The notes beneath the pieces were generated by a model that saw only the letters and a list, made by a program, of their open reading frames with translations, was not told the origin of the DNA and ran no database searches. Positions 2,358 to 35,969 of a DNA stretch of 64,000 bases are shown here, piece by piece. The DNA lies in the IMG/VR virus record IMGVR_UViG_3300047560_001287, positions 1 to 64,000 of that record; one strand, written 5' to 3'. Numbering within the stretch: the first letter of the stretch is position 1; each line of letters begins with the position of its first letter. Source of the stretch: a virus (lineage: Duplodnaviria > Heunggongvirae > Uroviricota > Caudoviricetes). The position numbers and the translations under genes are program-made.

Positions 2358-2358
2358 T

Positions 2359-3276
2359 ATGTCAACAGAAGTAGTTAAAAACCCTGAGCATGAAAAACTC
2401 ATTGAGATTTTAAAGTTCACTCCGTGTACTTACAAGATTCAATTGTGGGGATATGGTGGTGAATATGTGATGGGTACAGTAGACCGCAAAATATACGACT
2501 ATTTCAAAAGACGCCGTCTTGACATAAGTGACTATGCCTGGGATAGTGACTATGCTAATGACAATCAAATTCCTGAAGATATGCAACCATTCTATCCAGG
2601 TCAATGGCATGACTGTGATGATATGGGTCATCACTGGGGTGTTGACAGAGGCGCAGGCACGTTGCAAATCTTAGACGAAAACGACAATGTAGTTTATGAA
2701 GCCAGTACTGATAACATTGATGGTTACAGTGAAGATAGCCCTGAATGGCGTGGTGGTGACGAGATATGGATTGACATGAAAGATCCAGGCACTGTTGTAT
2801 TCTTAGGAGTAAGCAGTGAGAAAGGTACGTTCTATGAAGGTCACTTAGAACTAAAATCTCCTTTCGATATCACTAAACTTTCACTCGAATATTCAGAGAT
2901 TGATTGTAACGAAATCATCACCGGTGTGTACTATAACGATGAACAAATTGACAACTACGGTGGTGACACTAGTGGCAAGAGTTCAGACTTTGGTTTCTAC
3001 ATTGCAGGCTCTAACAAGCACGATGGTAAGGGATACGAGAAGTATTCAAACATGGATGACATTGTTTATCCATTGACTGACTGGTTCCCTAAAAAAATCA
3101 AACCAGTCCGTGAAGGTATATATAATGTAAAGACTGCTGGTAAGAATAGTTATACATATCAAGCAAAGTGGACTGGTGATAAGTGGATCAAGACATGGAA
3201 TGATGAAGAAGTGAAAATTAAAGAGTGGCAGGGAATTAGTATCGATCCAGATTTAGAGGAGACAACAAATGGCTGA
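2359..3276 (+). CDS. hypothetical protein (305 aa), acidic, Trp/Tyr-rich
   Basis: Long ORF. Start set to first ATG after upstream stop. Confidence 0.5.
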   Translation: MSTEVVKNPEHEKLIEILKFTPCTYKIQLWGYGGEYVMGTVDRKIYDYFKRRRLDISDYAWDSDYANDNQIPEDMQPFYPGQWHDCDDMGHHWGVDRGAGTLQILDENDNVVYEASTDNIDGYSEDSPEWRGGDEIWIDMKDPGTVVFLGVSSEKGTFYEGHLELKSPFDITKLSLEYSEIDCNEIITGVYYNDEQIDNYGGDTSGKSSDFGFYIAGSNKHDGKGYEKYSNMDDIVYPLTDWFPKKIKPVREGIYNVKTAGKNSYTYQAKWTGDKWIKTWNDEEVKIKEWQGISIDPDLEETTNG

Positions 3277-3775
3277 GTGGAGCGTAAAACCCCAGTGGAA
3301 GAAATCAATTATTGAGCGCCAAGAATGGACTAAAGATGGACAATCATTCATCTATGAAACAGGTTGGCGCGGTGGTGAGTTTACTGTATACACAGATGAT
3401 GACAATCCCCCAGACATTGAAGCAGGTGTAGATATCTATAACTGTGACTATGAAACTGAACTTGTAGAAACATTTGATGGATGCTGGGACGATTATGATT
3501 TCGACGGTTGTGATGAAGAAACACAAGCGTGGCTAGAAGAATTCCTAGAAGAAAATTCTGTATTTGATTTGGAAGAACACGGTTGGTATAGCAATGATAC
3601 TGAAATGATTATTGATTGCGACTTAATCATTGAACGCATCGACGGTGACGAAGAACAAATTATTCACACTGGTCAACCAGAAGAAGAAGTCTTACCTGAA
3701 CTTGCACCTATTGTAGAAGAAAGAGCAAAATGGCCCTTCACTAGACCACAAGAAGGCACTAAGGAGGAAGAATAA
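3269..3775 (+). CDS. hypothetical highly acidic protein (168 aa)
   Basis: ORF overlapping upstream by 8 nt. About 30 percent Asp+Glu. Confidence 0.5.
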   Translation: MAEWSVKPQWKKSIIERQEWTKDGQSFIYETGWRGGEFTVYTDDDNPPDIEAGVDIYNCDYETELVETFDGCWDDYDFDGCDEETQAWLEEFLEENSVFDLEEHGWYSNDTEMIIDCDLIIERIDGDEEQIIHTGQPEEEVLPELAPIVEERAKWPFTRPQEGTKEEE

Positions 3776-4383: not shown

Positions 4384-4450
4384 GTATAAATACATGTGCT
4401 ACACAACGGTAGCACATTTCAATTTTCATATCCGCGTAAGGAAGGATTCT

Positions 4451-5131
4451 ATGAGTTATAACAAAACAAAAACCGACCCTGAGTTGGGTCAACAAGTGCA
4501 TGAGCACTTAGTCAAAATGGGTGTAGAAACACCAATCAACAAACGCAACATCGACCGCAAGGATCAAATTGCAGGCATCGAAGGTCACTTCACTGAAATC
4601 ATGCGTATCTTAGGATTAGACTTAACTGATGATAGTTTAACTGAAACACCTAAGCGTGTTGCTAAAATGTATGTTAATGAAATTTTCTGGGGTCTAGATT
4701 ATGAAGCATTTCCAAAGTGTACTACAGTTGATAACAAAATGCACTACAACGAAATGGTCGTTGAACGAAACGTTTCAGTCCAAAGTAACTGCGAACATCA
4801 CTTTGTCGTTATTGATGGCTTGGCTACAGTTGCTTATGTTCCTAAGCAGAAAGTCCTTGGCTTATCGAAGATTAATCGAATTGTCGAGTATTTTAGTAAA
4901 CGACCTCAGATCCAAGAACGTCTTACCGAGCAAATCTTCCACACACTTCAGTTCATTCTTGAAACTGAAGATGTTGCAGTCCTCATTGACGCACAACACT
5001 ATTGTGTTAAATCAAGAGGTGTTGAAGATACGGGATCCAGCACAGTTACATGCCGATTGGGTGGCGGTTTCAAAACAGATCCATCTGCACGTGGTGAGTT
5101 CTTACAAATTGCTAACAAAGGATGCAAATGA
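4451..5131 (+). CDS. folE: GTP cyclohydrolase I
   Basis: AAGGAAGGA RBS. CEHHFV catalytic motif, VAKMY, C-terminal STVTCRLGGGFK. Full-length FolE-type alignment by eye. Confidence 0.9.
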   Translation: MSYNKTKTDPELGQQVHEHLVKMGVETPINKRNIDRKDQIAGIEGHFTEIMRILGLDLTDDSLTETPKRVAKMYVNEIFWGLDYEAFPKCTTVDNKMHYNEMVVERNVSVQSNCEHHFVVIDGLATVAYVPKQKVLGLSKINRIVEYFSKRPQIQERLTEQIFHTLQFILETEDVAVLIDAQHYCVKSRGVEDTGSSTVTCRLGGGFKTDPSARGEFLQIANKGCK

Positions 5132-5322
5132 TTGAATTTCTTTCAAACATGAGTTTATTACTTGGAATGATTATTGAACAAGCAGTTTACATATTTTTAT
5201 TTTGTGTGGCGGGCTTGTTCATGTTTTATACTATAAAGAACACACCAGATAGTGCTTGTACAGGTAACTGCAATCAAGGTCGTAACTGTAACTGCAAGGA
5301 GAAGAAAGATGGGATTTCGTAA
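5122..5322 (+). CDS. small membrane protein with Cys-rich tail
   Basis: One predicted TM helix then CTGNCNQGRNCNC. Confidence 0.3.
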   Translation: MQMIEFLSNMSLLLGMIIEQAVYIFLFCVAGLFMFYTIKNTPDSACTGNCNQGRNCNCKEKKDGIS

Positions 5323-5545
5323 ACCAATGGACTACAATCAAGTGCATCATCAAATCTATATGGCAGGTGTAGAAATGAGTAGCAAATACAATGACGGTTT
5401 CACTCAATGGGAAATCAAAAAAGATTTGTATAAACTCAAATGGATGTTGGATCAGATTATGAAAGATAGTCCTACATTCGCTGATGAAGAACAATTCTTA
5501 AAAGAGAATGAACAGCGTGTAATGTGGAAGACTTTAAAGTTATGA
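5309..5545 (+). CDS. hypothetical protein (78 aa)
   Basis: AGGAGA RBS before ATG 5309. Confidence 0.4.
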   Translation: MGFRKPMDYNQVHHQIYMAGVEMSSKYNDGFTQWEIKKDLYKLKWMLDQIMKDSPTFADEEQFLKENEQRVMWKTLKL

Positions 5546-5847
5546 CTAAAACAAGCGTTGAACTAATACAAGAGGCTGCTGAAAGAATCATAAATGATCC
5601 AGTAGAACTTAAAAAGTTCATGCGACATATTCTAGGTCCTAATCGTAGGAAAATCACAGGTCAAGAACATGACCACATGTTAACTGTATTTGCTTTAGTA
5701 GAACCAATTGAATCAAGTAACAATCAAAGATCATGGACAGATGTATATGAACATGCAGGTAAAACTTATCATGTTCATTACTTTGAAGATGAAACAGAAA
5801 TAGAAGAAATACTACCAGATGATATTCAACAAGATAAAACAACTTAA
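5542..5847 (+). CDS. hypothetical protein (101 aa)
   Basis: ATGA overlap start. Confidence 0.45.
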   Translation: MTKTSVELIQEAAERIINDPVELKKFMRHILGPNRRKITGQEHDHMLTVFALVEPIESSNNQRSWTDVYEHAGKTYHVHYFEDETEIEEILPDDIQQDKTT

Positions 5848-6280
5848 AGAAGCAGGCAAAAAGATTGGCATTACATTCTCAACTTTTGACTTACTTCACG
5901 CAGGGCACATTGCTATGTTGGCTGAGGCTAAAAATCATTGTGACTACCTTATTGCAGGACTCCAAACTGACCCCACTATCGACAGACCAGATACGAAGAA
6001 TAAACCTGTACAGTCAATTGTGGAGCGACAAATACAATTGGCATCGTGTCGTTTTGTTGATGAAGTTGTTGTATACTCAACCGAACAAGACCTCATCGAC
6101 CTTCTCCTCATCCTTCCAGTTGACGTTAGAATACTCGGTGTCGAATATCAAAGTCAGGACTTTACTGGTAGAAAAGAAGGGACCGAAAAAGGTATAGAAC
6201 ACGTGTTTAACTCTCGTGACCATAGTTTCTCAAGTTCTAGTTTGAGAAAAAGAGTAGCTGAATCTGAAAATGGTAAATAA
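5819..6280 (+). CDS. cytidylyltransferase, TagD-like (glycerol-3-phosphate cytidylyltransferase family)
   Basis: GITFSTFDLLHAGHIAMLAEAK...YLIAGLQTD...RFVDEVVV aligns motif-for-motif with TagD ITYGTFDLLHWGHIKLLERAK...RYVDEVI. Confidence 0.75.
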   Translation: MIFNKIKQLKEAGKKIGITFSTFDLLHAGHIAMLAEAKNHCDYLIAGLQTDPTIDRPDTKNKPVQSIVERQIQLASCRFVDEVVVYSTEQDLIDLLLILPVDVRILGVEYQSQDFTGRKEGTEKGIEHVFNSRDHSFSSSSLRKRVAESENGK

Positions 6281-6354
6281 CATAAACCGGTCTTATGGGC
6301 TCACCCCGGTATATAAATTCTGCGTCCTATGCTAAAATTAACATAGGAGAAAAT

Positions 6355-6858
6355 ATGCATAATCCAATTACATACAAATACACAAGCACAAAAGAATACC
6401 ACGATGCGTTTCCGTGTGCTTATCGTCAATGGCGTGCAGACAGCCATTGCAACACAATTCATGGTTACAGTTTCAGTATGAAATTCTATTTCGGTACAAA
6501 CGATTTAGATGCCCGTAACTGGGCTGCCGACTATGGTGGTCTAAAAGAATTGAAGAAGTTCTTGGAAGATCAATTCGACCACACACTTATCGTAGCACAA
6601 GATGATCCAGAAATGGAAACATTCAAACTATTACAAGAAAAGAAGATGGCTAAAATCATCGTCTTGCCTGCGTTAGGTTGTGAAGCACTAAGTGATATGC
6701 TATACAAGTATGTCAATGGTGTTTACATTCCTGAGATGTGGGGTGAGGGAGAAGCAAAAAGACTTTGGTGCTACCGTGTAGAAGTACGGGAGACTCAAAG
6801 CAATATGGCTTTCAGAGAAGGTCATAGAGAGTGGAATGAAGATTTATTTAAGGAGTAA
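6355..6858 (+). CDS. queD: QueD-like 6-carboxytetrahydropterin synthase (PTPS/T-fold family), atypical metal ligands
   Basis: AGGAGA RBS. SHCNTIHGYSF matches Cx3HGH motif but second His is Tyr. FDHTLIVAQDD matches the LDHHYLND region. Confidence 0.7.
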   Translation: MHNPITYKYTSTKEYHDAFPCAYRQWRADSHCNTIHGYSFSMKFYFGTNDLDARNWAADYGGLKELKKFLEDQFDHTLIVAQDDPEMETFKLLQEKKMAKIIVLPALGCEALSDMLYKYVNGVYIPEMWGEGEAKRLWCYRVEVRETQSNMAFREGHREWNEDLFKE

Positions 6859-6860
6859 AA

Positions 6861-7481
6861 ATGTTTTCATTATTTAAAGACGTAGATAAGAAAATGATGG
6901 CAATGCTTGCAGTATTGCACGTTATTGTTATTATAATTTCAAACGCATTGGTTTCAATCCCAGTTGAAATCTTAGGTGTTAAATTAACTTGGGCGGCATT
7001 TACCTTCCCATTAGTTATTTTGGCAACAGACTTGACAGTCCGTTTACTAGGTAAAGGTATTGCACGGGCAACTATTGCGGCAGCATATCCATTTGCTATC
7101 TTAGGTAGTATTGCAGTTGTATTGTTAGAGGGAGCACCTCAATCAGTAGCATTGCGTATTGGTTTTGCTAGTGCAACAGCATACTTAGTAGGTACACTAC
7201 TTGATGTATATGTATTCCAATATGTCCGTGAGAAGTTCACTAAGCAATGGTGGGCGGCTCCTGCATTATCAATGATTGCCGCAAACTTTATTGATAGTTA
7301 CACATTCTTCAGTGTTGCATTCTATCAAAGTGCAGACGAATACATGGCGGCTAACTGGAGTGAAATTGCATTGAGTCAAACTATCCTAAAGATTGCAGTA
7401 GGTATTATTGTGTTCTTACCAGCATATGGTGTTCTATTGAACTTCTTAAAGAAGCGTATACACGATACTGACCAAGGATAA
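6861..7481 (+). CDS. yhhQ: YhhQ/DUF165-family queuosine-precursor (preQ0/preQ1) transporter
   Basis: AGGAG RBS. About 6 TM helices. N-terminal LAVLHVIVIIISNALVSIPVEILG typical of the family. Confidence 0.75.
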   Translation: MFSLFKDVDKKMMAMLAVLHVIVIIISNALVSIPVEILGVKLTWAAFTFPLVILATDLTVRLLGKGIARATIAAAYPFAILGSIAVVLLEGAPQSVALRIGFASATAYLVGTLLDVYVFQYVREKFTKQWWAAPALSMIAANFIDSYTFFSVAFYQSADEYMAANWSEIALSQTILKIAVGIIVFLPAYGVLLNFLKKRIHDTDQG

Positions 7482-7639
7482 TGAAGAACATTTGGCGTTT
7501 ATGGGCGAAAGCCCTTGGCGAAAAATCAGGTGATACGGATCAGGAAGCTGACCGTATCGCTTTGATTAGAACCTGCATTGTGCTAACATATATAGTCACA
7601 AATATTTTTATTGTTGCAGGCGTTATAAGGCATTGGTAA
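7481..7639 (+). CDS. small hydrophobic protein (52 aa)
   Basis: Fills otherwise empty gap. TAATG start and TAAATG end couplings. Not in supplied ORF track (<60 aa). Confidence 0.3.
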   Translation: MKNIWRLWAKALGEKSGDTDQEADRIALIRTCIVLTYIVTNIFIVAGVIRHW

Positions 7640-8194
7640 ATGAATATAGTAATTACAGGGCATATGGGTGGTATTGGTTTAGAATTTGCCACTCAGTTAA
7701 GAAATGCAGGTCATGTGATACATGGTTATGATTTGCTAAATGGCTATAATGTAGTTGACAGTCACACGCAAGATTTAATACTTGAACAGTTAAAATCGTG
7801 CGATGTGTTTATTAATAATGTTTATGGTGAATCACAACTTGAATTATTAAAGAAGGCAACAGCATCTTGGTTGGGTTTTAAAAAGTTAATAGTAAACATG
7901 AATAGTAAAAAGGTGTTAAAGGATCCTTCATTGATTGTTCCGGGCACACAAGAATCAAAATATTATACGGAAAAAATGAATCAAATGGTTTTCGCTAGAC
8001 AACATGCTAACACCAAAAAGACACCATTGATAATGTCAGTTTTTCCAGGATGGATTGATACAAAAGCCGCAGATACGTCTGGCGAAAATCCAACTGATAG
8101 AATGAAAGTAAGTACACTGGTAAAAACAATAGTACCATATATTGAAGATTTTTCCGAGTTCTATTTACAAGAAATGGTTATTGATTTATCATAA
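7640..8194 (+). CDS. short-chain dehydrogenase/reductase-like (compact, 184 aa)
   Basis: N-terminal ITGHMGGIG Rossmann motif. YYTEK fits YxxxK. Confidence 0.55.
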   Translation: MNIVITGHMGGIGLEFATQLRNAGHVIHGYDLLNGYNVVDSHTQDLILEQLKSCDVFINNVYGESQLELLKKATASWLGFKKLIVNMNSKKVLKDPSLIVPGTQESKYYTEKMNQMVFARQHANTKKTPLIMSVFPGWIDTKAADTSGENPTDRMKVSTLVKTIVPYIEDFSEFYLQEMVIDLS

Positions 8195-8213
8195 AGAATT
8201 ATGAAAGAAAGAA

Positions 8214-9056
8214 ATGGCAGAGTTAAAAATAGCTGAATTATTTTATAGCATTCAAGGTGAAGGACGTTATATGGGCGTTCCTTCTGTGTTTTTGAGAACA
8301 TTTGGGTGCAACTTCAAATGTGAAGGCTTCGGTATGCCTAGAGGTCAAACTAGTAATGAAAGGTTTACAATTGATGCAGATAGTATTACAGAGTATAAAA
8401 ATTTACCGTTGGTGTCTACGGGCTGTGATTCATATGCTTCATGGGACCCTCGTTTCAAGCATCTTAGTCCTATGCTCAATGTTAATACTATTGCCGATAG
8501 CATTATTGATTTACTTCCTCATGGTCGTTGGATGGATGAACACTTGGTTATTACTGGGGGTGAGCCACTTCTTGGATGGCAAAGAAGCTATCCTGAATTA
8601 CTTTCGAACGAAAAAATGAGGGCTCTCAAAGAGTTAACATTTGAGACTAACGGAACACAACATTTGAGTGAAGAATTTAAAGAATTCTTGCAACTTTGGA
8701 AAAGAAATAGAGAAAAGAATGCACTAACTTTTAGTGTAAGTCCTAAATTATCAGTAAGTGGAGAAAAGTATAATGAAGCAATTTTGCCTAATGTTATACG
8801 TCAATACCAAGATGTGGGTTTTGTATACCTTAAGTTCGTGGTGGCTTCAGAAGAAGATGTATTGGAAGCTGAAAAAGCTACACAAGAATACAAAAACTGC
8901 GGATTCAAAGGTCCAGTCTACTTGATGCCCGTTGGTGGTGTTGAAAGTGTTTACGAAATGAACGCAAAGAATGTAGCATTGGCAGCAATGAAACGTGGCT
9001 GGCGTTATAGTGATAGATTGCAAGTGCCATTATTTAAAAATGAATGGGGAACATGA
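8214..9056 (+). CDS. queE: 7-carboxy-7-deazaguanine synthase (radical SAM)
   Basis: ELFYSIQGEGRYMGVPSVFLRTFGCNFKCEGF matches QueE N-terminus and Cx14CxC-type cluster motif. Confidence 0.85.
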   Translation: MAELKIAELFYSIQGEGRYMGVPSVFLRTFGCNFKCEGFGMPRGQTSNERFTIDADSITEYKNLPLVSTGCDSYASWDPRFKHLSPMLNVNTIADSIIDLLPHGRWMDEHLVITGGEPLLGWQRSYPELLSNEKMRALKELTFETNGTQHLSEEFKEFLQLWKRNREKNALTFSVSPKLSVSGEKYNEAILPNVIRQYQDVGFVYLKFVVASEEDVLEAEKATQEYKNCGFKGPVYLMPVGGVESVYEMNAKNVALAAMKRGWRYSDRLQVPLFKNEWGT

Positions 9057-9262: not shown

Positions 9263-9498
9263 TCGATGTTCCAGAATATCAAGAAATCGACCTTAATGAG
9301 TACGAACGCAAAACTCGTGCTTGGGAACTGAAGTTCTGTTGGTTACCACAACGTTGTATTGAAACAATGCAGGTTATGTGGCTACAGTTTGCTTATCGTG
9401 GTTATAAGGCTCGTAGATATGATACGCAAATTATCGATTCGTATAAATGGATGTGCAAAGAAGAATTTATTATTTTGAGATTAAAAGGTGAGGTATGA
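9259..9498 (+). CDS. hypothetical protein (79 aa)
   Basis: ATGA overlap couplings on both sides. Confidence 0.35.
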   Translation: MIDVPEYQEIDLNEYERKTRAWELKFCWLPQRCIETMQVMWLQFAYRGYKARRYDTQIIDSYKWMCKEEFIILRLKGEV

Positions 9499-10850
9499 AA
9501 ACATATAAGAAAAGAATTGCGTTTTTAATTAGTGACCAACATTTTATCCCGCATGGTGGCATTGGTAGTTTCTGTAAGAGTTTTACAGAAATGTGTGGTC
9601 GGATTGGTTGGAAAGTAGATATTCTTTTAGACAAGGCTCCTACAGGTGGGTTTGATAAAGTGATTGAGGCTGCTGGTGCCAACATTATTTGGCCACTAGA
9701 ACCACTACGTTATAGTGACCACACTGCTACATTTGCGTTTAGTGATACAATCAACTTTGAAAAGATTATTAATTTCCGTAACAGCATCTTAGAAGCATTT
9801 GAAGAAAATCTCTATGACATGATTTTGTGCAACACGCAGGAAGCAATGAGTGCGGCTTATGCGATGACTTTGAATAAAGATATCCCTGTGATTTTCTATA
9901 CTCATTTACACAGTATGATTTTCCGTTCAGGTCAAGGTAGTGATGTGTTCTTAGATAGTTATCACAACTTCTACAACAAACATATGGAATTTCCTGATAT
10001 CTTTATCGGCACTCAATCACTGAAAAACAAAATAGAATTAGAAAGTCATGGTTCAAAATATGTAAGTATTTTACAGATGCCATTGAGTGAGCGTGGGTTA
10101 CTAGAGCCTAGTTATAAGAAACGCAGGGGTGTATTGTTTATTGGTCGATGGGAAGAAGGTAAGAACCCAGAAGCATATATCAAAGCGATGAAAGAATCAG
10201 GATTACCCTGCAAAGTTATGACTAACAGTAACGGACAAAAGAAGTTCGAGAAGGCTTTTGCAGAGAATGGTATCACTGACTACGAAATCAAAGCAGGGAT
10301 TACTGGACAAGAGAAAGTAGACTTTATTAAAAGTTGTGCAGTATTTTTTATGCCTAGCTTGCGTGAAAACTTTCCGTTCGCATTCTATGAATGTTTAGGA
10401 CACATGCCTAGCGTAGTGTTAGACACACAAGATTGGTCTGAGAATTTCCTACACATCTACTATTATAGAACTAACATGGATGAAGTTTCTGACACGTTAA
10501 AAAGATTACACGACACATCTAATCCAGAAAAATATTACAAAACAGGAGCGTTAGAATATGTCAAGTCTATTGACACTGATACTGTTCAGTCTTGGATTGA
10601 TTTTATTGACGGGTATGAAGGTAGAAAAGCAAAATCTAATCAAGCTAAAATCAATGAATACGAAACAGTGAAATACGCTGACTATATCAAAGAGTTAAAT
10701 CGTAAACATTTAGCGAGAGAAGATTTTGAAAGTGTGTTAACCAATAGACATAAATTCAACGTCATTTATACGGACAATCACACTTATCTATCAAAAGATG
10801 CTACCTTTGTACCAGACGAAGAAGAAACTAACTTATTTGAGGGACTATGA
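9495..10850 (+). CDS. GT-B glycosyltransferase (GT4-like)
   Basis: GGTGAGG RBS. RGVLFIGRWEEGKN...SLRENFPFAFYECLGHMPSVVLD resembles GT1/GT4 donor-binding segment. Confidence 0.65.
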   Translation: MKTYKKRIAFLISDQHFIPHGGIGSFCKSFTEMCGRIGWKVDILLDKAPTGGFDKVIEAAGANIIWPLEPLRYSDHTATFAFSDTINFEKIINFRNSILEAFEENLYDMILCNTQEAMSAAYAMTLNKDIPVIFYTHLHSMIFRSGQGSDVFLDSYHNFYNKHMEFPDIFIGTQSLKNKIELESHGSKYVSILQMPLSERGLLEPSYKKRRGVLFIGRWEEGKNPEAYIKAMKESGLPCKVMTNSNGQKKFEKAFAENGITDYEIKAGITGQEKVDFIKSCAVFFMPSLRENFPFAFYECLGHMPSVVLDTQDWSENFLHIYYYRTNMDEVSDTLKRLHDTSNPEKYYKTGALEYVKSIDTDTVQSWIDFIDGYEGRKAKSNQAKINEYETVKYADYIKELNRKHLAREDFESVLTNRHKFNVIYTDNHTYLSKDATFVPDEEETNLFEGL

Positions 10851-11671
10851 AAAAGATTTTAATTACAGGCAACTCGGGATATATCGGTAGTCATCTGACT
10901 AAGATGTTACAAGATGAATATGAAGTTCATGGGCTTGACATTAATCCACCGCAACTACTCCCCAAGACGCATCACACGATTGACATTCGTAAATTGTTTA
11001 ATATTGAAGAAGAATATGATGCCGTTATTCACTTAGCCGCATTAGTTAATGTGGGTGAGAGCGAACAAATACCCATTCAGTATTACATCACAAACTTGAA
11101 TGGTACAATGAATGTGATTAACAAAATCAAGACAAAGAACTTTATCTTTGCTAGTACAGGTGCCGCAGTTGGATGTGAGAGTGCATACGGTATTAGCAAA
11201 AGAGCCGCAGAAGATGTAGTTGGAGAATATTGTACAACCCATCGCCCGACACCATATACAATCTTTAGATTTTATAATGTTATTGGAAGCACCGTCGTGG
11301 CTCCCACTAACCCCGATGGATTAATGTACAATTTAATGAAGGCCCGAGAAACAGGAGAATTCACTATTTTCGGTAAGGACTATGATGCAAGTCCTGATGG
11401 AACTTGTATTCGTGACTATGTACATGTCAATGAGATTTGTGATGCATTAAAGCAAGCAATAGAGAAACCAAGTAATAGTGTTGAATCATTGGGACATGGT
11501 GTTGGATATACTGTTCGTGAAATTGTCAATAAATTTATGGAAGTAAACGATTGTGACTTTGATGTAAAGTATGGACCTAGAAGAAAAGGTGATCTTGCTG
11601 TTTCTGTATTAGAAGATGTTTCACCTTATATGCGTAACTTGTATACGATGGAAGAGTTGTTAAAAGTTTAA
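10847..11671 (+). CDS. NAD-dependent nucleotide-sugar epimerase/dehydratase
   Basis: ILITGNSGYIGSHL Rossmann motif. YGISK catalytic YxxxK. Extended-SDR length. Confidence 0.8.
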   Translation: MKKILITGNSGYIGSHLTKMLQDEYEVHGLDINPPQLLPKTHHTIDIRKLFNIEEEYDAVIHLAALVNVGESEQIPIQYYITNLNGTMNVINKIKTKNFIFASTGAAVGCESAYGISKRAAEDVVGEYCTTHRPTPYTIFRFYNVIGSTVVAPTNPDGLMYNLMKARETGEFTIFGKDYDASPDGTCIRDYVHVNEICDALKQAIEKPSNSVESLGHGVGYTVREIVNKFMEVNDCDFDVKYGPRRKGDLAVSVLEDVSPYMRNLYTMEELLKV

Positions 11672-12360
11672 CGATAATATTGATTCATAACATTGCTGTT
11701 GAATCCCACATCAACTACAACTGGTTTACCTTGATACATGCCCCAATTAGCGGCTCTGTTAAAATCACCCAATTCAACATCAAACGAATTCTTCAAGTCA
11801 GCGAAGTCGTTAACATATTGCAGGAAGATTTCATTGTCATCTTCACTGTTACCATAGAACTGATTTTTTTCAAGAATGTCGTCCAGTACACTACGTGAAC
11901 GTTGTCCATATTCATTTAATTGAGCTTGTGCGGCCATAACTAAATCAACAAGACCATAACATTTCATTATGTTACACAATTGTTTCTCACTAGCTTTAGT
12001 GGCCATTTCAGTGTGAATCCAACTAGGTTCACGATTTTCTTCATCATAGTCAATGATTGGTATTAGTATACCTAACTGTTTTGCATATCCATCACTAAGA
12101 ATATCTGCCTCAACACTGTTCTGTGCTAGACCTTTTTGATTCTTAGCAATCTTTAATACAGTAGGACGACCTTCATACTCAATAACAGTAGCAACACGAC
12201 TTGATCCGGTGCCTAATTTTTTAGCACGTTCTAACGCATAGGCTAAACGACTTTTGAACGTAGTAGCTTGCTGACGCATTGATGCAGGATCCCAATCCGC
12301 AGGTAGCGGCATCTCATCGATAATTCTAGCTTCTTCTTTGATAAACTCACTTGCTCTCAT
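11668..12360 (-). CDS. protein-kinase-like fold protein (atypical)
   Basis: LGTGSSRVATV glycine loop, VLKIAK (VAIK-like), VVVDVGF (DFG-like). Catalytic loop not canonical. Confidence 0.4.
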   Translation of the reverse strand: MRASEFIKEEARIIDEMPLPADWDPASMRQQATTFKSRLAYALERAKKLGTGSSRVATVIEYEGRPTVLKIAKNQKGLAQNSVEADILSDGYAKQLGILIPIIDYDEENREPSWIHTEMATKASEKQLCNIMKCYGLVDLVMAAQAQLNEYGQRSRSVLDDILEKNQFYGNSEDDNEIFLQYVNDFADLKNSFDVELGDFNRAANWGMYQGKPVVVDVGFNSNVMNQYYR

Positions 12361-12367
12361 CTAGTAT

Positions 12368-13663
12368 TTATCTAAAAAACGTTTCAAAGTCCGAATATTC
12401 AGGAAAAATTTCAACGAAGGACTCGTTCCTATTCGCATCGAGCCATTTATCTACTTCCCAGTAACTAGTAAAATCTTCTGCATCAAGGTTCAATCTACCT
12501 AAAATACCATTAAATGACTGTATCGTAAAGTCCGGGTGTGTATTACTATTAAATTCAGGAAAATACCAATTAGTATTGGCACTGGGTAATGTACGTAAGT
12601 ATTCAATATGGTCTTTGTATATTTTAGACAAATTATCTTTATGATGTTTTGGTAGATTTTTAATATCGTAATGTTCAGGGTTAGACACAATAGAATATAT
12701 GAAAAAATCATAAGGTCCTATTAATTTTTTATCTATCCATTCACGATGGAAATCAACTATGTTATATGCGTTGAATATGTTTATAGTAGAATTTATTGAA
12801 AATTTTACATTAGGTAGTTTTTCAATCATAAGTTCTCTGTTTTTTACAATATCATTCCATACTAGATTTTTTCGTATGTATTCTCCTCGCTTGTAATTAG
12901 CATCTAAACTAGCACCCACACGTAAATTTGTAAATTTACTCCAATAATTTATTACTCTTTTGATATTTGTAAAATTTGTAGAATAGTTTATTTCTACATC
13001 AGTTTTTCCGTTGTCAATTAAATATTCCAAAATTTGATAATGAACGTCATTTACAAGCGGTTCACCACCTGCAAAGTATATTTTTTCAACAGTTCGTAAG
13101 TCGTTTTTGATTGATTCAATATTTTCTAAACCAGTTAACCTTTTCATATGAATAGGTCTACGCATTATTTTTTTAAAAACAGGTATTTCTTTGAATAGTG
13201 ATGCTGTCTCATTACTCCAACTAGAACTAAACACACTGCTACAGTATCTACATCTGAGATTACATGTATTATCAATCATTAAATCCAAATATAATATTTT
13301 TGGATTGTCTAAAGAATAATCAAGGTTGATATTATCTTTGGTATTTTTTATAAAATCTTTTTTGAATTGTTCTACCATACCTTGACGGTAAGACCTAATT
13401 CCAGTGCGTTCTGTTTCGTAGCATCTTTTGCACTCTACAGATGGTTTGATGTTAATTATATTTTCCCTCATCTGTTTTATCTGATTAGAATTATAAGAAT
13501 TCGGGTCTGAATAATGTAGTAGAGGTTGGGTTCTATTTATTACACAACATGGGCTAACAGTGCCATCTGTGTTTATGTGTTTATTTGAGAACGGGGCTGG
13601 GCAGAAATATTCGCTATTGGTTATTAAATTACAGTCATCTTCCGAAATTGATAATTTATTCAT
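12368..13663 (-). CDS. radical SAM enzyme with N-terminal SPASM-like cysteine domain
   Basis: Central CNLRCRYC (Cx3Cx2C) and GGEPLV. N-terminal CPAPFSNKHINTDGTVSPCC...CKRC matches SPASM CxxPW..DG.V.PC consensus. Confidence 0.75.
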   Translation of the reverse strand: MNKLSISEDDCNLITNSEYFCPAPFSNKHINTDGTVSPCCVINRTQPLLHYSDPNSYNSNQIKQMRENIINIKPSVECKRCYETERTGIRSYRQGMVEQFKKDFIKNTKDNINLDYSLDNPKILYLDLMIDNTCNLRCRYCSSVFSSSWSNETASLFKEIPVFKKIMRRPIHMKRLTGLENIESIKNDLRTVEKIYFAGGEPLVNDVHYQILEYLIDNGKTDVEINYSTNFTNIKRVINYWSKFTNLRVGASLDANYKRGEYIRKNLVWNDIVKNRELMIEKLPNVKFSINSTINIFNAYNIVDFHREWIDKKLIGPYDFFIYSIVSNPEHYDIKNLPKHHKDNLSKIYKDHIEYLRTLPSANTNWYFPEFNSNTHPDFTIQSFNGILGRLNLDAEDFTSYWEVDKWLDANRNESFVEIFPEYSDFETFFR

Positions 13664-13693
13664 AAAATTATTTATTGCGGATAAATTACTATT

Positions 13694-14248
13694 TTATAAA
13701 CTCTTACCCCATCGTGTGTTGACAACGTTCCAGTTAATAATCTTCCACTGTTCTTTCAGATACTTTTTCTTGTCTGAGCCATAATCAAGTATCCAAGCAT
13801 GTTCCCACCAATCAACTAAAAGTAGTATGTCGTTGCGAACTTCATGGTTTTTAATGGTCTTGATTGAACCGTCGTATGCTAAGTAGACCCAACCACTACC
13901 TTCAATTTTCATTGCTTCTTCTTCAAATTTGTCTTTGAAATCTTCCCATGAACCAAAATGTCTTTTAATAAATCCTTCGATAGGACCGTTTGGTTTGTTG
14001 TTGTTTCTTAACTCGCGGAATTGAGGGAACAATGTATTATGTAAGAATGCTCCTGCATAATTAAATTCTCTGTCGCCTTCTTTTTTGTTATATCGTTCAG
14101 CATAACCATGCGCTAACTTGCCATAGTGCAAATCAAGTGTGTCTTTAGACATAACCGGACTTACTTCTTTTGGCTCAAAGTTCAGAGCAATGATTTCTAT
14201 ATCTTGAGGTTTACTTTTATCCTCAAGTAACTGAATAATATCACGCAT
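13694..14248 (-). CDS. sod: Fe/Mn superoxide dismutase family protein (compact)
   Basis: LHYGKLAHGY, FLHNTLF, GSGWVYLAY, DWWEHAW. All four metal-ligand positions (H, H, D, H) present. Confidence 0.75.
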   Translation of the reverse strand: MRDIIQLLEDKSKPQDIEIIALNFEPKEVSPVMSKDTLDLHYGKLAHGYAERYNKKEGDREFNYAGAFLHNTLFPQFRELRNNNKPNGPIEGFIKRHFGSWEDFKDKFEEEAMKIEGSGWVYLAYDGSIKTIKNHEVRNDILLLVDWWEHAWILDYGSDKKKYLKEQWKIINWNVVNTRWGKSL

Positions 14249-15819
14249 TAGTGTTTCAATAATAGTGTCGCAATGATGTTAGGATCGTTAGCACTGATAT
14301 CACCTTCACCTGGTGCTACGATTACGTTGTATTTCATACCAGCAGGTATTGACTTACGTTTAGCCATGTACTCATCATAACTCAATATAGAGTTAGCACT
14401 CAATCCATACTGTTTAGCAAGACGTTGTTTTAGTTCAGGTAACTTGTCAGGTTGCACTTGCCATTGGCCTTCTGGCCCCTTAACCAAGTTCTTCTTTGCG
14501 TCCTTAACTAATAAATCTTGGAACAATTCATCTGGAACGATGCGACTGTTCTTTGTTGTATCTAATGATGGATCTTGTGCCTTAACTTGTTTCTCTTGTG
14601 AAGTGTGGGCACCTTCACTCCAGTTGATAATGAAGTTGGCTGGCTTCTTAGCTAATGCGGCACCGGCCATCTTTGTGTACGCATAGAACTTAGTATCAGG
14701 GTGCTTTGCGGCCATCTTTAATGCTAAGTCTAAATATTCTGGACTAAAGAAGTCACCGGCGTCATGCCAACGAATTGTTGTTTGCCAACCATTAGGAAAC
14801 TTTTTATCACCCTTTTTACCTGCGGCTTCTTCCGCGGAAATCTCATTACTTAATTGATTGAAGAAACCGTCTGGGTCATTCAATAGATATGTTAAGATAC
14901 GACCATCACTTAACCAAGCGGCTTTGAATTGAACTTTACCGCCCTTCATAGCGAAACAATCAACTTTACATGAACCAGCTCCAGGACATGTATTAACAAT
15001 GATTAGTTTGTTTGTATCTTCATCTAATGCAATACCTGTTAATGCCGCAAAGCCAACGTTGAAGAATTGTTCAAACTCTCCATTACTGTGCTTCATCTTT
15101 TCGTTTTGTTTTAGTAACTTCTTTGGACGTTCTGCTAATGCTTGTTTGATTTTATCTTCACTGTATGTCTTTCCATCTGGTCCTAAGTATTCAATTACGC
15201 TTGAACGATGGATATAAGGCATTTTATATCTGTCTGATTTTGTTTTACCAGATTTATATTTTTCAATGCCCTTCTTATCTACTTTAACGTTACCTTCTTT
15301 GTCAAGATCAGGTGTACCAACGATACGTTTCATGTAGTCTTGAAATTCATCACCACCAAATTCACGACTTTGTGCTGGTAGTTTAGTTGCTTCATCTAAG
15401 CCAGATAGTTCGCGGATTCTTAATAGATGTTGTTGACCTTCATCTAAATCTAATTCACTATGTCTAAATGCTATTGTATCTCTACCGTCATCGTCCCCAA
15501 TACGATATACATATACTCCGGCATCATCATCACCGGACTCATCAGGGCCAATTTCCCAACCCATTACTTCTAATGTTTTTTGGGCTTTATCCATTTGTTG
15601 TTCGGTACCGTTCCACCACTGTGCGGCTAATTTGCGTAATACTTCTTCCTCGTCAGGTTCACGGTCATCGCCACCAGGAGGTGCAAATTCGTCTATCTTT
15701 TCTTCTCCGGGCATATCACCAGCTTTAGCAACGAATTGCTGAGGTGTCATAATTTGGATGCCTTTTGGGGCTCCTGGCATGTTTGGCTCAGTGCCTTCCA
15801 TTAATTGTCTGATTTTCAT
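14248..15819 (-). CDS. large hypothetical protein (about 524 aa) with CPGAGSCKVDC segment
   Basis: Long ORF. Start set to internal ATG 15819 because the called start 15885 overlaps the divergent promoter. Function unrecognised. Confidence 0.5.
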   Translation of the reverse strand: MKIRQLMEGTEPNMPGAPKGIQIMTPQQFVAKAGDMPGEEKIDEFAPPGGDDREPDEEEVLRKLAAQWWNGTEQQMDKAQKTLEVMGWEIGPDESGDDDAGVYVYRIGDDDGRDTIAFRHSELDLDEGQQHLLRIRELSGLDEATKLPAQSREFGGDEFQDYMKRIVGTPDLDKEGNVKVDKKGIEKYKSGKTKSDRYKMPYIHRSSVIEYLGPDGKTYSEDKIKQALAERPKKLLKQNEKMKHSNGEFEQFFNVGFAALTGIALDEDTNKLIIVNTCPGAGSCKVDCFAMKGGKVQFKAAWLSDGRILTYLLNDPDGFFNQLSNEISAEEAAGKKGDKKFPNGWQTTIRWHDAGDFFSPEYLDLALKMAAKHPDTKFYAYTKMAGAALAKKPANFIINWSEGAHTSQEKQVKAQDPSLDTTKNSRIVPDELFQDLLVKDAKKNLVKGPEGQWQVQPDKLPELKQRLAKQYGLSANSILSYDEYMAKRKSIPAGMKYNVIVAPGEGDISANDPNIIATLLLKH

Positions 15820-15838
15820 ATCGTTAATCCGTAAATAG

Positions 15839-15867
15839 TTGACTTTATTGCGTAATTGTGATACACT
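15839..15867 (+). promoter_or_regulatory. sigma70-like promoter (TTGACT-17-TACACT) for uvdE
   Basis: Seen in divergent intergenic region 15820-15896. Confidence 0.4.
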
Positions 15868-15896
15868 ATATCTATTATTTATCATTCCATTATCTT

Positions 15897-16931
15897 ATGC
15901 ACTCTTTTGACATTGCACACAAACGTATTGGTTTCGCTTGCAAGTGGGCCGAAATCAACAAAAAGGGCGAAATCGCTAGTACTGAGGGTCTCAACACTGG
16001 CGGTACTACTATGGCATGGGCAAAGCGCAACAATCACAATGTAGTAGAAGAAAAAATTATCGATGTTGCTAAAACTAACATTGTCAACACACACAACTTA
16101 ATCAAAAAAGTTGCAACACTACCGACCGAACTACGCATGTTGCGTATCACTAGTGATATGCTTAGTTTTTACACACACGAAGATTACACTGACTTCTGGC
16201 AAAGTCAAAATACACAGGATATGCTAGCTCGTTGGTTTGCACCGCTAGGTGAGACTGCACGACAAAACAATGTGCGTTTGTCCTTTCACCCTGACCAATT
16301 TGTAGTTCTTGCAAGCGACCGTCCTGAGGTAGTAAATAAGAGTATTGAGGAGTTTGAGTACCATGTCGATATGGCTAAGTGGATGGGATACGGCAGAGAA
16401 TTTCAGGATATTAAAATCAATGTCCATATCTCAGGTCGTAAAGGCCCCCAAGGCATTAGAGATGTATTTGGACGTTTATCGCCTGAAGCACGAAACTCAT
16501 TGACACTAGAAAACGAGGAATATACATATGGTCTCGATGATTGCCTTAGCCTTTCTGACTTGGTCCCTACTGTGTTGGACATACATCACTTTTGGGTGCG
16601 TGAAGGGTCATACATACAATCATCTGATGACAGTGTTCAGCGTGTGGTGGATAGTTGGCGCGGTATTAGGCCTACTCTCCATTATAGTGTTAGTCGTGAA
16701 GATGTACTTGTCGGTCATGCCACTAACACTAGCCCAGTCATGGAGTCTTTGCTTCTAGAAGGTTTTAGCAAACAAAAACTACGTGCCCATAGTGATTACT
16801 ATTGGAACGACAGTGTTAACGATTGGGCTTTGACATTCTTAGATAACTTTGATATCATGTGCGAATCAAAGGCTAAGAACCTTGCAAGTTATAAAGTATA
16901 CGAAAGAGCAAAACAAAATGGGATTATTTGA
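15897..16931 (+). CDS. uvdE: UV damage endonuclease
   Basis: KRIGFACKW, LRITSDMLSF, LSFHPDQFVVLAS, LTLENEE, LDIHHFW match UvdE TIM-barrel motifs. Start moved to first ATG downstream of promoter (called start is GTG inside promoter). Confidence 0.8.
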   Translation: MHSFDIAHKRIGFACKWAEINKKGEIASTEGLNTGGTTMAWAKRNNHNVVEEKIIDVAKTNIVNTHNLIKKVATLPTELRMLRITSDMLSFYTHEDYTDFWQSQNTQDMLARWFAPLGETARQNNVRLSFHPDQFVVLASDRPEVVNKSIEEFEYHVDMAKWMGYGREFQDIKINVHISGRKGPQGIRDVFGRLSPEARNSLTLENEEYTYGLDDCLSLSDLVPTVLDIHHFWVREGSYIQSSDDSVQRVVDSWRGIRPTLHYSVSREDVLVGHATNTSPVMESLLLEGFSKQKLRAHSDYYWNDSVNDWALTFLDNFDIMCESKAKNLASYKVYERAKQNGII

Positions 16932-35114: not shown

Positions 35115-35311
35115 TAGGCAAATCATACACATTTGATGATGGCAGTAAAATTGAAATCATACAGATAAAACTCACAGATGAAAACCGAGGTAAGTTTCTC
35201 GTTACATATTTAATATCACAGGGTCCTAATTTACCTCGTAAATTGGTAATGGGCATAGATGAGTTTGTAAACTCGTTCGGGCATTTATTTGGAATCATAG
35301 AGAATGAGTAG
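35102..35311 (+). CDS. hypothetical protein (69 aa)
   Basis: ORF between paralogs. Confidence 0.3.
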   Translation: MHDLVGKSYTFDDGSKIEIIQIKLTDENRGKFLVTYLISQGPNLPRKLVMGIDEFVNSFGHLFGIIENE

Positions 35312-35957: not shown

Positions 35958-35969
35958 TAAATATATGTT

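Follow-up and report, generated by a model that had tools for sequence, protein, structure and literature searches.

A gene of a large, uncultured phage, on the minus strand of the window (the whole 64-kb stretch of DNA considered in the current analysis) encodes a radical-SAM enzyme of the N_Twi_rSAM family, in which a predicted auxiliary cluster domain of the twitch type precedes the catalytic core. The explanation that we favour, and regard as probable when taken as a whole, is that of a phage-borne enzyme of three parts, which performs the radical chemistry outlined below with some leaning towards sugar substrates and which is carried in its phage lineage as an accessory insert.

The ORF listing of the window gives a reading frame at 12368..13663 on the minus strand that opens with ATG and encodes 431 residues plus a stop codon. 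For an identical sequence JGI has a public gene call (P0001, 367 residues) that starts at M65 and loses C21, C39 and C40. Since the 64 residues upstream of that start are conserved in all the homologs, the long ORF has the right start and P0001 is too short. The practical gain for the window is a corrected annotation of a public gene call that is N-terminally truncated. The parts of the gene are as follows.

12368..13663, minus strand: radical-SAM enzyme of the N_Twi_rSAM family, complete ORF (ORF listing, NF033640 match of 311.7 bits, AF2 model)
13379..13612, minus strand: N-terminal twitch (half-SPASM) domain, residues 18-95 (Cys motif, invariance, BtrN profile match, Pfam SPASM, AF2)
13601-13603, minus strand: C21, predicted ligand of the auxiliary [4Fe-4S] cluster (motif, conservation)
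13547-13549, minus strand: C39, predicted ligand of the auxiliary [4Fe-4S] cluster (motif, conservation)
13544-13546, minus strand: C40, extra near-invariant Cys beside the ligand C39 (conservation)
13430-13432, minus strand: C78, predicted ligand of the auxiliary [4Fe-4S] cluster (motif, conservation)
13421-13423, minus strand: C81, predicted ligand of the auxiliary [4Fe-4S] cluster (motif, conservation)
13307..13378, minus strand: connector from the twitch to core strand 1, residues 96-119, part of the long helix 92-111, boundaries approximate (AF2 secondary structure)
12764..13306, minus strand: radical-SAM core (partial TIM barrel), residues 120-300
13241..13264, minus strand: CX3CX2C motif CNLRCRYC (C134, C138, C141), predicted ligands of the SAM-binding [4Fe-4S] cluster (sequence, conservation)
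13058..13069, minus strand: GGEP motif, residues 199-202, the SAM-binding 'GGE' element (sequence, conservation)
12371..12763, minus strand: C-terminal helical domain, residues 301-431, without Cys (AF2 helices, invariant columns)

The protein has been assigned to the NCBIfam family NF033640 ('N_Twi_rSAM, twitch domain-containing radical SAM protein') with an E-value of 7.5e-93 and 311.7 bits against a cut-off of 170. The match runs from end to end, with residues 18-425 aligned on profile positions 2-396 of 398, and the same model is matched by all 25 of the 25 aligned homologs. The curated family itself places the twitch at the N-terminus. A sequence-only reading of this DNA had proposed an inverted domain order with a SPASM-like cysteine domain ahead of the core, and this layout is real, yet it is already curated in NF033640. 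The window protein is to be taken as an additional member of that family, and the architecture is less novel than that reading assumed.

The family comprises 5,170 or more clusters at the 50% identity level (E<=1e-30) and is spread over marine and freshwater phages, Bacteroidota, Bdellovibrionota and Elusimicrobiota. Its members have in common the three-part architecture and the invariant Cys set (268 domains). Tandem paralog arrays are frequent in phages and bacteria, with 5-8 paralogs and up to 8 in the loci L008 and L086-L092. Bacterial arrays occur, for instance, in Haliscomenobacter, Reichenbachiella and Ancylomarina, cultured strains being among the sources. Fusions with TPR and Sel1 repeats are common, and one fusion of GT2 with N_Twi has been identified (P0250). 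The window copy differs from these relatives in being phage-borne and single-copy, no second member of the family being found within the 64-kb window, and in that its nearest relatives are just 33-60% identical. The PDB sequence and profile searches and the literature yielded no characterised or solved member of the family, and no relevant paper was found on NF033640 or on radical-SAM enzymes with an N-terminal twitch or SPASM domain.

The 431 residues include nine cysteines, at positions 11, 21, 39, 40, 78, 81, 134, 138 and 141. The stretch CPAPFSNKHINTDGTVSPCC of the translation holds C21, C39 and C40, and CKRC corresponds to C78 and C81, giving the spacing C21-x12-G-x4-C39C40 ... C78-x2-C81. 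All these five come before C134, in the same order in all homologs examined. The complete translation has no cysteine beyond C141, which leaves the N-terminal group as the sole candidate for an auxiliary site.

Conservation was counted over 268 domains of the family in an HMM alignment. C39, C78, C81, C138 and C141 are each present in 268/268, C134 in 267 and C40 in 266, while C21 is found in 255, the remaining 13 being gaps that belong to truncated N-termini. G199, G200 and E201 of the GGEP motif are likewise each invariant (268/268). As judged from the alignment, conservation of the cysteines and motifs is far beyond chance. Many invariant Arg, Asp, Asn and His residues, among them R66, R93, R139, R264 and R412, are also kept across paralogs and suggest that the substrates may share a common polar handle.

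The SPASM motif, which Grell et al. are said to have described in 2015, reportedly reads CX9-15GX4C-gap-CX2CX5CX3C-gap-C and binds two auxiliary clusters. Over the whole window protein the first half of this seven-Cys motif (PF13186 / TIGR04085) is the only part present, CX5CX3C and the further Cys being absent. The Pfam SPASM match covers residues 21-49 at profile positions 1-23 only, and its 18.4 bits lie under the gathering score of 21.5. In ten homologs, Pfam SPASM is always located upstream of Radical_SAM and covers nearly the whole of the 67-position profile; nine of the ten pass the gathering score, with 36-49 bits, and P0129 stops at 20.2. The earlier proposal that residues 20-80 fit the SPASM consensus stands for the twitch half and fails for the full motif.

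When the profile of the N-terminal domain was searched against the whole PDB (hmmsearch), BtrN was the only match, through its C-terminal twitch (residues 168-237, E 0.005). The family Cys columns align on the BtrN cysteines at chain positions of about 169 (SCMVP), 186-187 (LPC) and 232/235 (CKNC). The AF2 model, which is confident as one globule (pLDDT 91.2, pTM 0.89), places a β-hairpin (27-30, 35-37) between C21 and C39 and a helix (76-86) that bears C78 and C81. A simple zinc ribbon had been named as the other possible outcome of structural modelling, and the modelled hairpin-plus-helix arrangement is that of a twitch and not of a zinc ribbon. Twitch domains of the BtrN/MoaA type bind one auxiliary cluster, [4Fe-4S] or [2Fe-2S], close to the active site, and the BtrN-like radical-SAM dehydrogenases oxidise a carbohydrate alcohol by two electrons. 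The N-terminal domain is a twitch (half-SPASM, one predicted cluster) and not a full two-cluster SPASM; its predicted auxiliary [4Fe-4S] cluster would have C21, C39, C78 and C81 as ligands, like the four corresponding cysteines of BtrN.

The radical-SAM core lies in the middle of the protein, as had been noticed from CNLRCRYC and GGEP, and Pfam Radical_SAM (PF04055) matches residues 132-292 with 40.7 bits against a gathering score of 29.5. The C-terminal domain is formed of helices 302-311, 339-358, 378-391, 399-411 and 421-430 in the AF2 model and carries the conserved residues H306, W309, K342, D409, R412, E414, P421 and E422. This domain probably serves as a substrate cap.

SPASM and twitch domains have been described in a review as C-terminal extensions of the radical-SAM core (PMC9012708). 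The window protein departs from this placement, its auxiliary domain being situated at residues 18-95, ahead of the core. BtrN, the archetype of the twitch enzymes (2-deoxy-scyllo-inosamine dehydrogenase, PDB 4M7T/4M7S), shares with it the pattern C...hairpin...C ... CX2C, whereas the BtrN twitch follows the core (about 168-237 of 250-270). The auxiliary cluster of BtrN occupies a single site with four Cys and is a proposed electron acceptor (PMC9012708). The window protein further differs from BtrN in the extra C40 and in the helical C-terminal domain of 130 residues, and no full-length or core similarity between the two is detectable by sequence. When the family profile was artificially permuted to place the core before the twitch, BtrN was matched through the twitch alone (16 bits), with no colinear match.

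The auxiliary domains are also C-terminal in BlsE (cytosylglucuronate decarboxylase, PDB 7VOB), MoaA (1TV7) and anSME (4K36), which share 16-20% identity with the window protein. As the whole-chain TM-scores to these three are 0.4 or lower, there is no solved structure with the full architecture. A phmmer search of the PDB with the full protein gave no match, and the full-family profile gave marginal core matches only, the best being to GDGT-MAS (E 0.004); these marginal PDB and Tes similarities are restricted to the CX3CX2C-GGEP region.

A like fold over most of the chain has been identified in the 'MoaA/NifB/PqqE family protein' of Vibrio phages KVP40 and phi-pp2 (Q6WHP4, I6XCF1). These proteins, together with about 20 BFVD proteins of uncultured phages, are matched by Foldseek with E-values of 1e-15 to 1e-33 and TM-scores of 0.6-0.85, and tblastn covers residues 20-367 of the window protein; the identity is 22-28%. 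The prokaryotic viperins (NF038283) show weak but consistent core similarity (18 of 25 family members; Foldseek E about 5e-5). Unlike the window protein, viperin is without an auxiliary cluster domain. Its score of 31.0 bits against a cut-off of 180, like that of MoaA (TIGR02666; 36.9 against 284), is far below the threshold.

The genes around the radical-SAM gene in the window are the following.

14248..15885, minus strand: GP88-like gene
13694..14248, minus strand: Fe/Mn superoxide dismutase (SOD), upstream of the radical-SAM gene with a 30-nt gap (Pfam Sod_Fe_C, E 1.4e-24)
11668..12360, minus strand: conserved 230-residue phage protein (phrog_4301), downstream of the radical-SAM gene with a 7-nt gap (kinase-like motifs)
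10847..11671, opposite strand: epimerase, convergent to the radical-SAM block
9495..10850, opposite strand: glycosyltransferase, convergent to the radical-SAM block

The minus-strand order is GP88-like, SOD, radical-SAM and 230-residue ORF, with gaps of -1, 30 and 7 nt. The block is convergent to the glycosyltransferase and epimerase genes, as had been pointed out. Glycosyltransferase, epimerase and sugar-nucleotidyltransferase-like genes are all found within 12 kb in the window, and genes for FolE, QueD, QueE and a YhhQ-like transporter lie 3-8 kb away. Counts in a promoter and terminator scan were at chance level. Megablast of 11000-16000 had no match in INPHARED, and the DNA ligase of this phage shares at most 36% identity with that of any cultured phage.

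In related phages (L001, L083, L093 and L095) the slot of the SOD gene is taken by ferritin. The order is GP88, ferritin and a 231-residue gene in L095, where the radical-SAM gene is absent; ferritin, a 227-residue gene, amidoligase and SNase in L093; and ferritin, radical-SAM and SNase in L001 and L083, which are without the 230-residue gene. Nine neighbouring ORFs of the window (the 230-residue ORF, SOD, GP88, glycosyltransferase, epimerase, UvdE, two small ORFs and QueE) were compared by tblastn with 89 homolog loci, and none proved to be a conserved partner. The adjacency of the radical-SAM, SOD and 230-residue genes is lineage synteny and not a functional module. The radical-SAM gene is an accessory of this phage lineage, optional and inserted behind the ferritin/SOD gene at a place that varies. 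An operon with SOD and a kinase-like protein had been suggested; this holds for position only, and the related phages separate the genes, which speaks against a functional unit.

The kinase-like nature of the downstream neighbour could not be substantiated at the level of fold, the 230-residue ORF having Pfam APH at E 0.03 only, no match in the PDB and a poor AF2 model (pLDDT 60, N-terminal half below 50). The idea that SOD or ferritin gives dedicated support to an Fe-S enzyme was also considered and is weakened, ferritin holding the slot in phages without the radical-SAM gene too.

In the mechanism that we propose, the cluster held by C134, C138 and C141 would cleave SAM reductively to a 5'-deoxyadenosyl radical, which would take a hydrogen from the substrate. 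The auxiliary cluster could then accept or relay an electron, resulting in oxidation or dehydrogenation. Alternatively, the substrate radical would be quenched, possibly by C40, with an epimerisation-type outcome. Compared with its place in BtrN, MoaA and anSME, the auxiliary domain has changed sides, from C-terminal to N-terminal of the core, and has kept its internal order.

The substrate is possibly a sugar-containing envelope molecule, such as a nucleotide-sugar, a glycan or a lipid-linked glycan, an assignment to which we give a little less than an even chance. In a census of 148 proteins encoded beside bacterial members, PhyH (10), GDSL/SGNH (6), UbiA (5) and other radical-SAM enzymes (5) were found, and methyltransferases, DegT, NTP_transferase, GT1, GT2 and ABC transporters also recur. 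A separate clustering of the neighbours within 6 kb at 78 loci gave a Wzt-type ABC ATPase family (6), NAD-dependent epimerase (5) and carbamoyltransferase (5). The neighbourhoods are heterogeneous, the top partner making up at most about 7% of neighbours. These bacterial contexts suggest tailoring of envelope glycans or lipids, and the context weakly favours sugar modification over the maturation of peptides or cofactors.

Some further observations on the substrate may be recorded here. Running counter to the leaning towards sugars, the glycosyltransferase/epimerase block of the phage is on the opposite strand. Protein or peptide substrates fit equally with the TPR/Sel1 fusions, the Asp/Arg-hydroxylase neighbours and the tandem paralog arrays, and lipid substrates fit equally with the UbiA and PhyH neighbours and the weak sequence match to GDGT-MAS. 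Pfam detected almost nothing besides an Asp_Arg_Hydrox match among the otherwise unassigned cassette proteins of the phage arrays.

Many SPASM enzymes are maturases of RiPPs (PMC9012708), and a peptide- or protein-modifying maturase, either RiPP-like or one that cross-links or epimerises a phage or host protein, is the alternative that survives best, though we consider it unlikely. Most SPASM and twitch enzymes of established function are of this kind. The common TPR and Sel1 fusions, the Asp/Arg β-hydroxylase-like and PhyH oxygenases recurring beside paralog arrays and the likeness of 5-8-paralog arrays to multi-step peptide tailoring are in line with such a role. On the other hand, the Pfam and NCBIfam scans gave no RRE or leader-binding domain, no conserved small ORF resembling a precursor stood out and all the NCBIfam models of RiPP maturases are far under their cut-offs. 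The structural matches span the generic core alone (TM 0.3-0.4), the sugar-nucleotide neighbours and the fusion with GT2 point elsewhere, and the window copy is single, an obvious substrate gene being absent.

Action on nucleotides or nucleic acids, be it viperin- or MoaA-like NTP chemistry or a step of phage DNA-base modification, appears less likely still. After NF033640, viperin (18/25, best E 3.8e-9) and MoaA (8/25) are the most consistent NCBIfam similarities, but their scores are far under the cut-offs and reflect common core motifs. The five invariant arginines could hold phosphates. The 7-deazaguanine genes of the window are on the other strand with glycosyltransferase and epimerase genes in between, and Que and Dpd genes do not accompany the homologs of other phages or of bacteria.

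There is rather little probability that the enzyme tailors an isoprenoid or alkyl chain as GDGT-MAS/Tes does. There is a weak match to NCBIfam Tes, and UbiA prenyltransferases (5/148) and PhyH (10/148) are among the commonest neighbours, but the Tes/GDGT-MAS matches are marginal and do not extend beyond the CX3CX2C-GGEP region, no lipid-synthesis genes adjoin the radical-SAM gene in the window, and the GT2 fusion and the Wzt/GT contexts suit glycans. Least probable is a structural zinc-binding motif in place of the N-terminal Fe-S domain, with which the partial, sub-threshold SPASM score of the window protein would agree, but against which stand the BtrN twitch profile aligning all four ligands, the full-length above-threshold SPASM in 9/10 homologs tested, the curated family name and the predicted twitch-like topology.

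Returning to the N_Twi_rSAM enzyme with its leaning towards sugars, a broader and more doubtful proposal may be put forward. The N_Twi enzymes may be a radical tailoring system in which the permuted twitch builds an active-site entrance unlike that of BtrN-type enzymes, and whose substrates, modified by a chemistry so far undescribed, would be envelope glycans, lipids or components of the virion. The window gene would then be a single-copy offshoot of the phage arrays that remodels the host surface or a phage glycoconjugate in infection.

The large family breaks the published rule of C-terminal placement for SPASM and twitch domains. Once one member is worked out, thousands of genes would gain an annotation, and the role of an auxiliary cluster that is placed N-terminally would be revealed. 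Such work would also explain the investment of large phages in many oxygen-sensitive Fe-S enzymes.

The radical-SAM protein under study (rSAM) is encoded on the minus strand, in a block of genes listed here with the two genes that it faces:

14248..15885, minus strand: GP88-like protein (545 aa, PF17338) with a CPGAGSCKVDC motif
13694..14248, minus strand: Fe/Mn SOD, upstream of rSAM
12368..13663, minus strand: rSAM ORF, ATG start, 431 aa
11668..12360, minus strand: 230-aa ORF (phrog_4301), downstream of rSAM
10847..11671, opposite strand: NAD-dependent epimerase
9495..10850, opposite strand: glycosyltransferase

The successive gaps from the GP88-like gene to the 230-aa ORF are -1, 30 and 7 nt, and the gene order and the convergence with the epimerase and glycosyltransferase are as the sequence-only reading had described. 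The Cx3Cx2C and GGEP elements that it cited are all found in the translation, as CNLRCRYC (C134, C138, C141) and GGEP (residues 199-202). They are preceded by the Cys stretch CPAPFSNKHINTDGTVSPCC, which holds C21, C39 and C40, and by CKRC (C78, C81). The protein has nine cysteines (11, 21, 39, 40, 78, 81, 134, 138 and 141) and none beyond 141. In public JGI data the identical sequence carries a 367-aa gene call, P0001 ('sulfatase maturation enzyme AslB'), that begins only at M65; C21, C39 and C40, three of the five twitch-domain cysteines, are thereby lost. Since the residues upstream of M65 (codons 1-64, 13472-13663) are conserved in all homologs, the longer ORF is correct and the P0001 annotation is N-terminally truncated.

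The architecture of rSAM is that of an already curated NCBI family, of which it is a divergent phage-borne member. The NCBIfam model NF033640 ('N_Twi_rSAM, twitch domain-containing radical SAM protein') scores 311.7 bits against a cut-off of 170, spans residues 18-425 (profile positions 2-396 of 398) and is matched by all 25 aligned homologs. Next in consistency among the NCBIfam models come prokaryotic viperins, matched by 18 of 25 members, and MoaA, matched by 8 of 25; the scores of rSAM fall far under the cut-offs of both. Homology search identified 2,512 relatives at E<=1e-5, and an exhaustive search of 1.84 billion cluster representatives with the family profile gave 18,193 at E<=1e-3, a number that falls to 5,170 at E<=1e-30. 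When 268 full-length domains from 267 proteins were aligned to the family HMM, C39, C78, C81, C138 and C141 were present in every domain, C134 in 267, C40 in 266 and C21 in 255, the remainder for C21 being gaps in N-terminally truncated entries. C11 is unconserved. The searchable literature yielded no publication on the NF033640 family.

Several lines of evidence bear on the N-terminal domain. Its spacing, C21-x12-G34-x4-C39 ... C78-x2-C81, makes up the initial half of the SPASM signature reportedly given in Grell, Goldman and Drennan 2015. Pfam SPASM matches residues 21-49 of rSAM below threshold (18.4 bits vs 21.5), over profile positions 1-23 only. The same profile is found on this domain in ten homologs, upstream of Radical_SAM every time, and in nine of them with 36-49 bits over nearly the whole of its 67 positions. 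A profile of the N-terminal 85 or so residues alone, built from 22 family members, was compared with 177,635 distinct PDB sequences; BtrN was the sole significant protein (E 0.005), matched over residues 168-237 of 4M7S, the twitch domain at its C-terminus, and the conserved Cys columns of the family fall on the cysteines in the BtrN segments SCMVP, LPC and CKNC. The AlphaFold2 model from the family alignment (mean pLDDT 91.2, pTM 0.89) places a β-hairpin (27-30, 35-37) between C21 and C39, and C78 and C81 on a helix starting at residue 76, while a long helix (92-111) connects to barrel strand 1. The modelled topology is that of a twitch domain and not of a zinc ribbon, the alternative that the sequence-only reading had wished to see distinguished by structure; the N-terminal thiols probably converge close to the SAM cluster. 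The proposal of a SPASM-type Cys domain N-terminal to the core is thus borne out by four independent results (NF033640, the BtrN match, the homologs and the model), with one amendment: as only the first half-motif is present and no further cysteines occur, the domain is a twitch with one predicted auxiliary cluster and not a full two-cluster SPASM.

The core is recognised by Pfam Radical_SAM at residues 132-292 (40.7 bits vs a gathering score of 29.5). PDB sequences include no whole-protein match to rSAM, and the family profile gives marginal core matches only, GDGT-MAS being the best (E 0.004). Structurally, the core is similar to enzymes of the branch that holds SPASM/twitch proteins, MoaA, viperin and NifB: Foldseek matches to CteB, SkfB, SuiB, MoaA, BlsE, viperin and anSME have E-values of 1e-5 to 1e-4 at a query-normalised TM of 0.40 or less. 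No solved structure with the full architecture was found. Residues 301-431 are helical and Cys-free, with invariant H306, W309, K342, D409, R412, E414, P421 and E422, and are most simply read as a substrate cap. The twitch domain is C-terminal in BtrN (168-237), whereas in rSAM it precedes the core. As a permuted profile (core then twitch) gave no colinear match to BtrN, 'circular permutation' is a label for the domain order and not for a demonstrated evolutionary event.

Our analysis demonstrates the family membership, motifs and domain order of rSAM. In BtrN, four cysteines ligate the auxiliary cluster, which has been proposed to act as an electron acceptor (PMC9012708). By analogy with BtrN, the C134/C138/C141 cluster would cleave SAM, the 5'-dA radical would take a hydrogen from the substrate and the twitch cluster (C21/C39/C78/C81) would accept or relay the electron. 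C40, a fifth invariant Cys that neighbours a ligand, might donate a hydrogen atom or serve as an alternative ligand.

The window comes from a large uncultured phage. INPHARED contains no near match to it, and its DNA ligase is at most 36% identical to that of any cultured phage. Relatives of rSAM in the phage collection share 22-25% identity only (KVP40-like and jumbo Vibrio phages, Ralstonia phage RsoM2USA and one uncultured marine virus), and BFVD holds about 24 phage proteins with its fold. The nearest metagenomic relatives (52-60% identity; loci L001-L004 and L083-L085) have a 146-aa ferritin gene directly before rSAM, overlapping its start by 8 nt, and then SNase. Two contigs with homologs of the 230-aa protein lack rSAM, L095 having GP88-ferritin-231aa and L093 ferritin-227aa-amidoligase-SNase. 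The ferritin-like slot has been identified at:

L001, 9568-10008
L083, 7568-8008
L093, 5564-6004
L095, 3575-4015

GP88 followed by ferritin or SOD is backbone synteny of this phage lineage. In the window SOD stands where its relatives have ferritin, and the two are interchangeable; because they share the slot, a gene for iron or oxidative stress belongs to the backbone of the lineage. The rSAM and 230-aa genes are independent occupants of a variable spot, so the operon with SOD and a kinase-like protein that had been proposed is positional. A specific ROS or iron-protection partnership of rSAM with SOD or ferritin is unsupported, as ferritin occurs without rSAM. The GP88-family protein keeps the same position in L095. 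In the window a UvdE-type UV endonuclease gene (15858-16931, plus strand) diverges from the GP88-like gene, and its GTG start region and the GP88-like start overlap.

The 230-aa protein is unusually conserved: at 65-80% identity its homologs run into the hundreds, with over 100 from metagenomes, and many are longer proteins (330-380 aa) that begin with a GNAT or DUF6934 domain. GTGSSRV, VLKIAK, D199...N205 and D217-V-G are invariant kinase-like motifs; the kinase-like fold is only a candidate (Pfam E 0.03, AF2 pLDDT 60).

Other genes of the window include a 7-deazaguanine precursor set and sugar genes, all on the plus strand:

397-1173: cytidylyltransferase-like protein fused to a mannose-6-P-isomerase C-terminal (cupin) domain
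1170-2357: GT1-like glycosyltransferase
4394-5131: GTP cyclohydrolase I (precursor set)
5819-6280: second cytidylyltransferase-like ORF
6295-6858: QueD/PTPS (precursor set)
6861-7481: Vut_1/YhhQ-like transporter (precursor set)
8214-9056: QueE-like radical SAM (precursor set)

The precursor set (4394-9056) may represent a DNA base-modification pathway; the unannotated ORFs (2263-3276, 3269-3775 and 7640-8194) include no recognisable QueC or DpdA. The sugar genes with the glycosyltransferase and epimerase facing rSAM form a sizeable phage glycosylation toolkit. G+C dips locally to 0.307 at 34001-36000 against a window mean of about 0.38 and is also low (0.327) at 12001-14000, the rSAM region. 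Many ORFs in 20-64 kb of the window have no PHROG match.

The window has a single N_Twi copy. On phage-like contigs, distant relatives (33-43% identity) are arrayed in tandem, 5-8 diverged paralogs at a time, and arrays are found in bacterial MAGs as well:

L086, 1180-10606
L087, 2363-9410 and 12838-14139
L091, 671-10051
L092, 102-6944
Further array loci: L008, L005, L014, L025, L027, L041

A conserved block including an Asp/Arg-hydroxylase-like protein follows the array in L086-L092, and one array contig also bears PhoH and a T4 alpha-glucosyltransferase-like gene. The phage arrays are in line with a T4-like marine viral genome for which 12 radical-SAM genes were reported (PMC5332604). One-genome-per-species bacterial data gave 245 loci, mostly of Bacteroidota, Bdellovibrionota and Elusimicrobiota; at least two copies lie within 6 kb in 26 of 77 bacterial loci and at least four in 10, the maximum being 8. 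Fusions comprise tandem duplicates, TPR or Sel1 repeats (P0171, Sel1-N_Twi; P0166 and P0234, TPR at either end) and one GT2 glycosyltransferase (P0250, 873 aa, GT2-N_Twi). Some Elusimicrobia proteins reach 900-1,100 aa as TPR-N_Twi or N_Twi-TPR-N_Twi, and many members of roughly 530-570 aa have a 130-150-aa N-terminal extension without Pfam match.

Among 148 dereplicated neighbours lying within 5 kb, a Pfam census counted PhyH (10), GDSL/SGNH (6), UbiA (5), other radical-SAM proteins (5), short-chain dehydrogenases (3), methyltransferases (3), and two each of DegT aminotransferase, NTP_transferase, GT1, GT2 and ABC transporter. Separate clustering of all neighbours within 6 kb at 78 loci gave a Wzt-type ABC ATPase family (6), carbamoyltransferase (5) and NAD-dependent epimerase (5). 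These neighbourhoods recall gene clusters that tailor envelope glycans or lipids, with no dominant partner. In the window, sugar-nucleotide genes, two glycosyltransferases and the epimerase are near rSAM but on the opposite strand, and none of the sugar genes is conserved beside its homologs. We tentatively favour a sugar-containing substrate (a nucleotide-sugar, glycan or lipid-linked glycan). A peptide or protein is unlikely, a nucleotide or nucleic acid more doubtful still, and a lipid the least probable of these.

The N_Twi family is very large, and in both phages and bacteria its paralogs build up long arrays. Its N-terminal placement of the twitch domain contradicts the description of this domain as a 'C-terminal extension' in the literature (PMC9012708).
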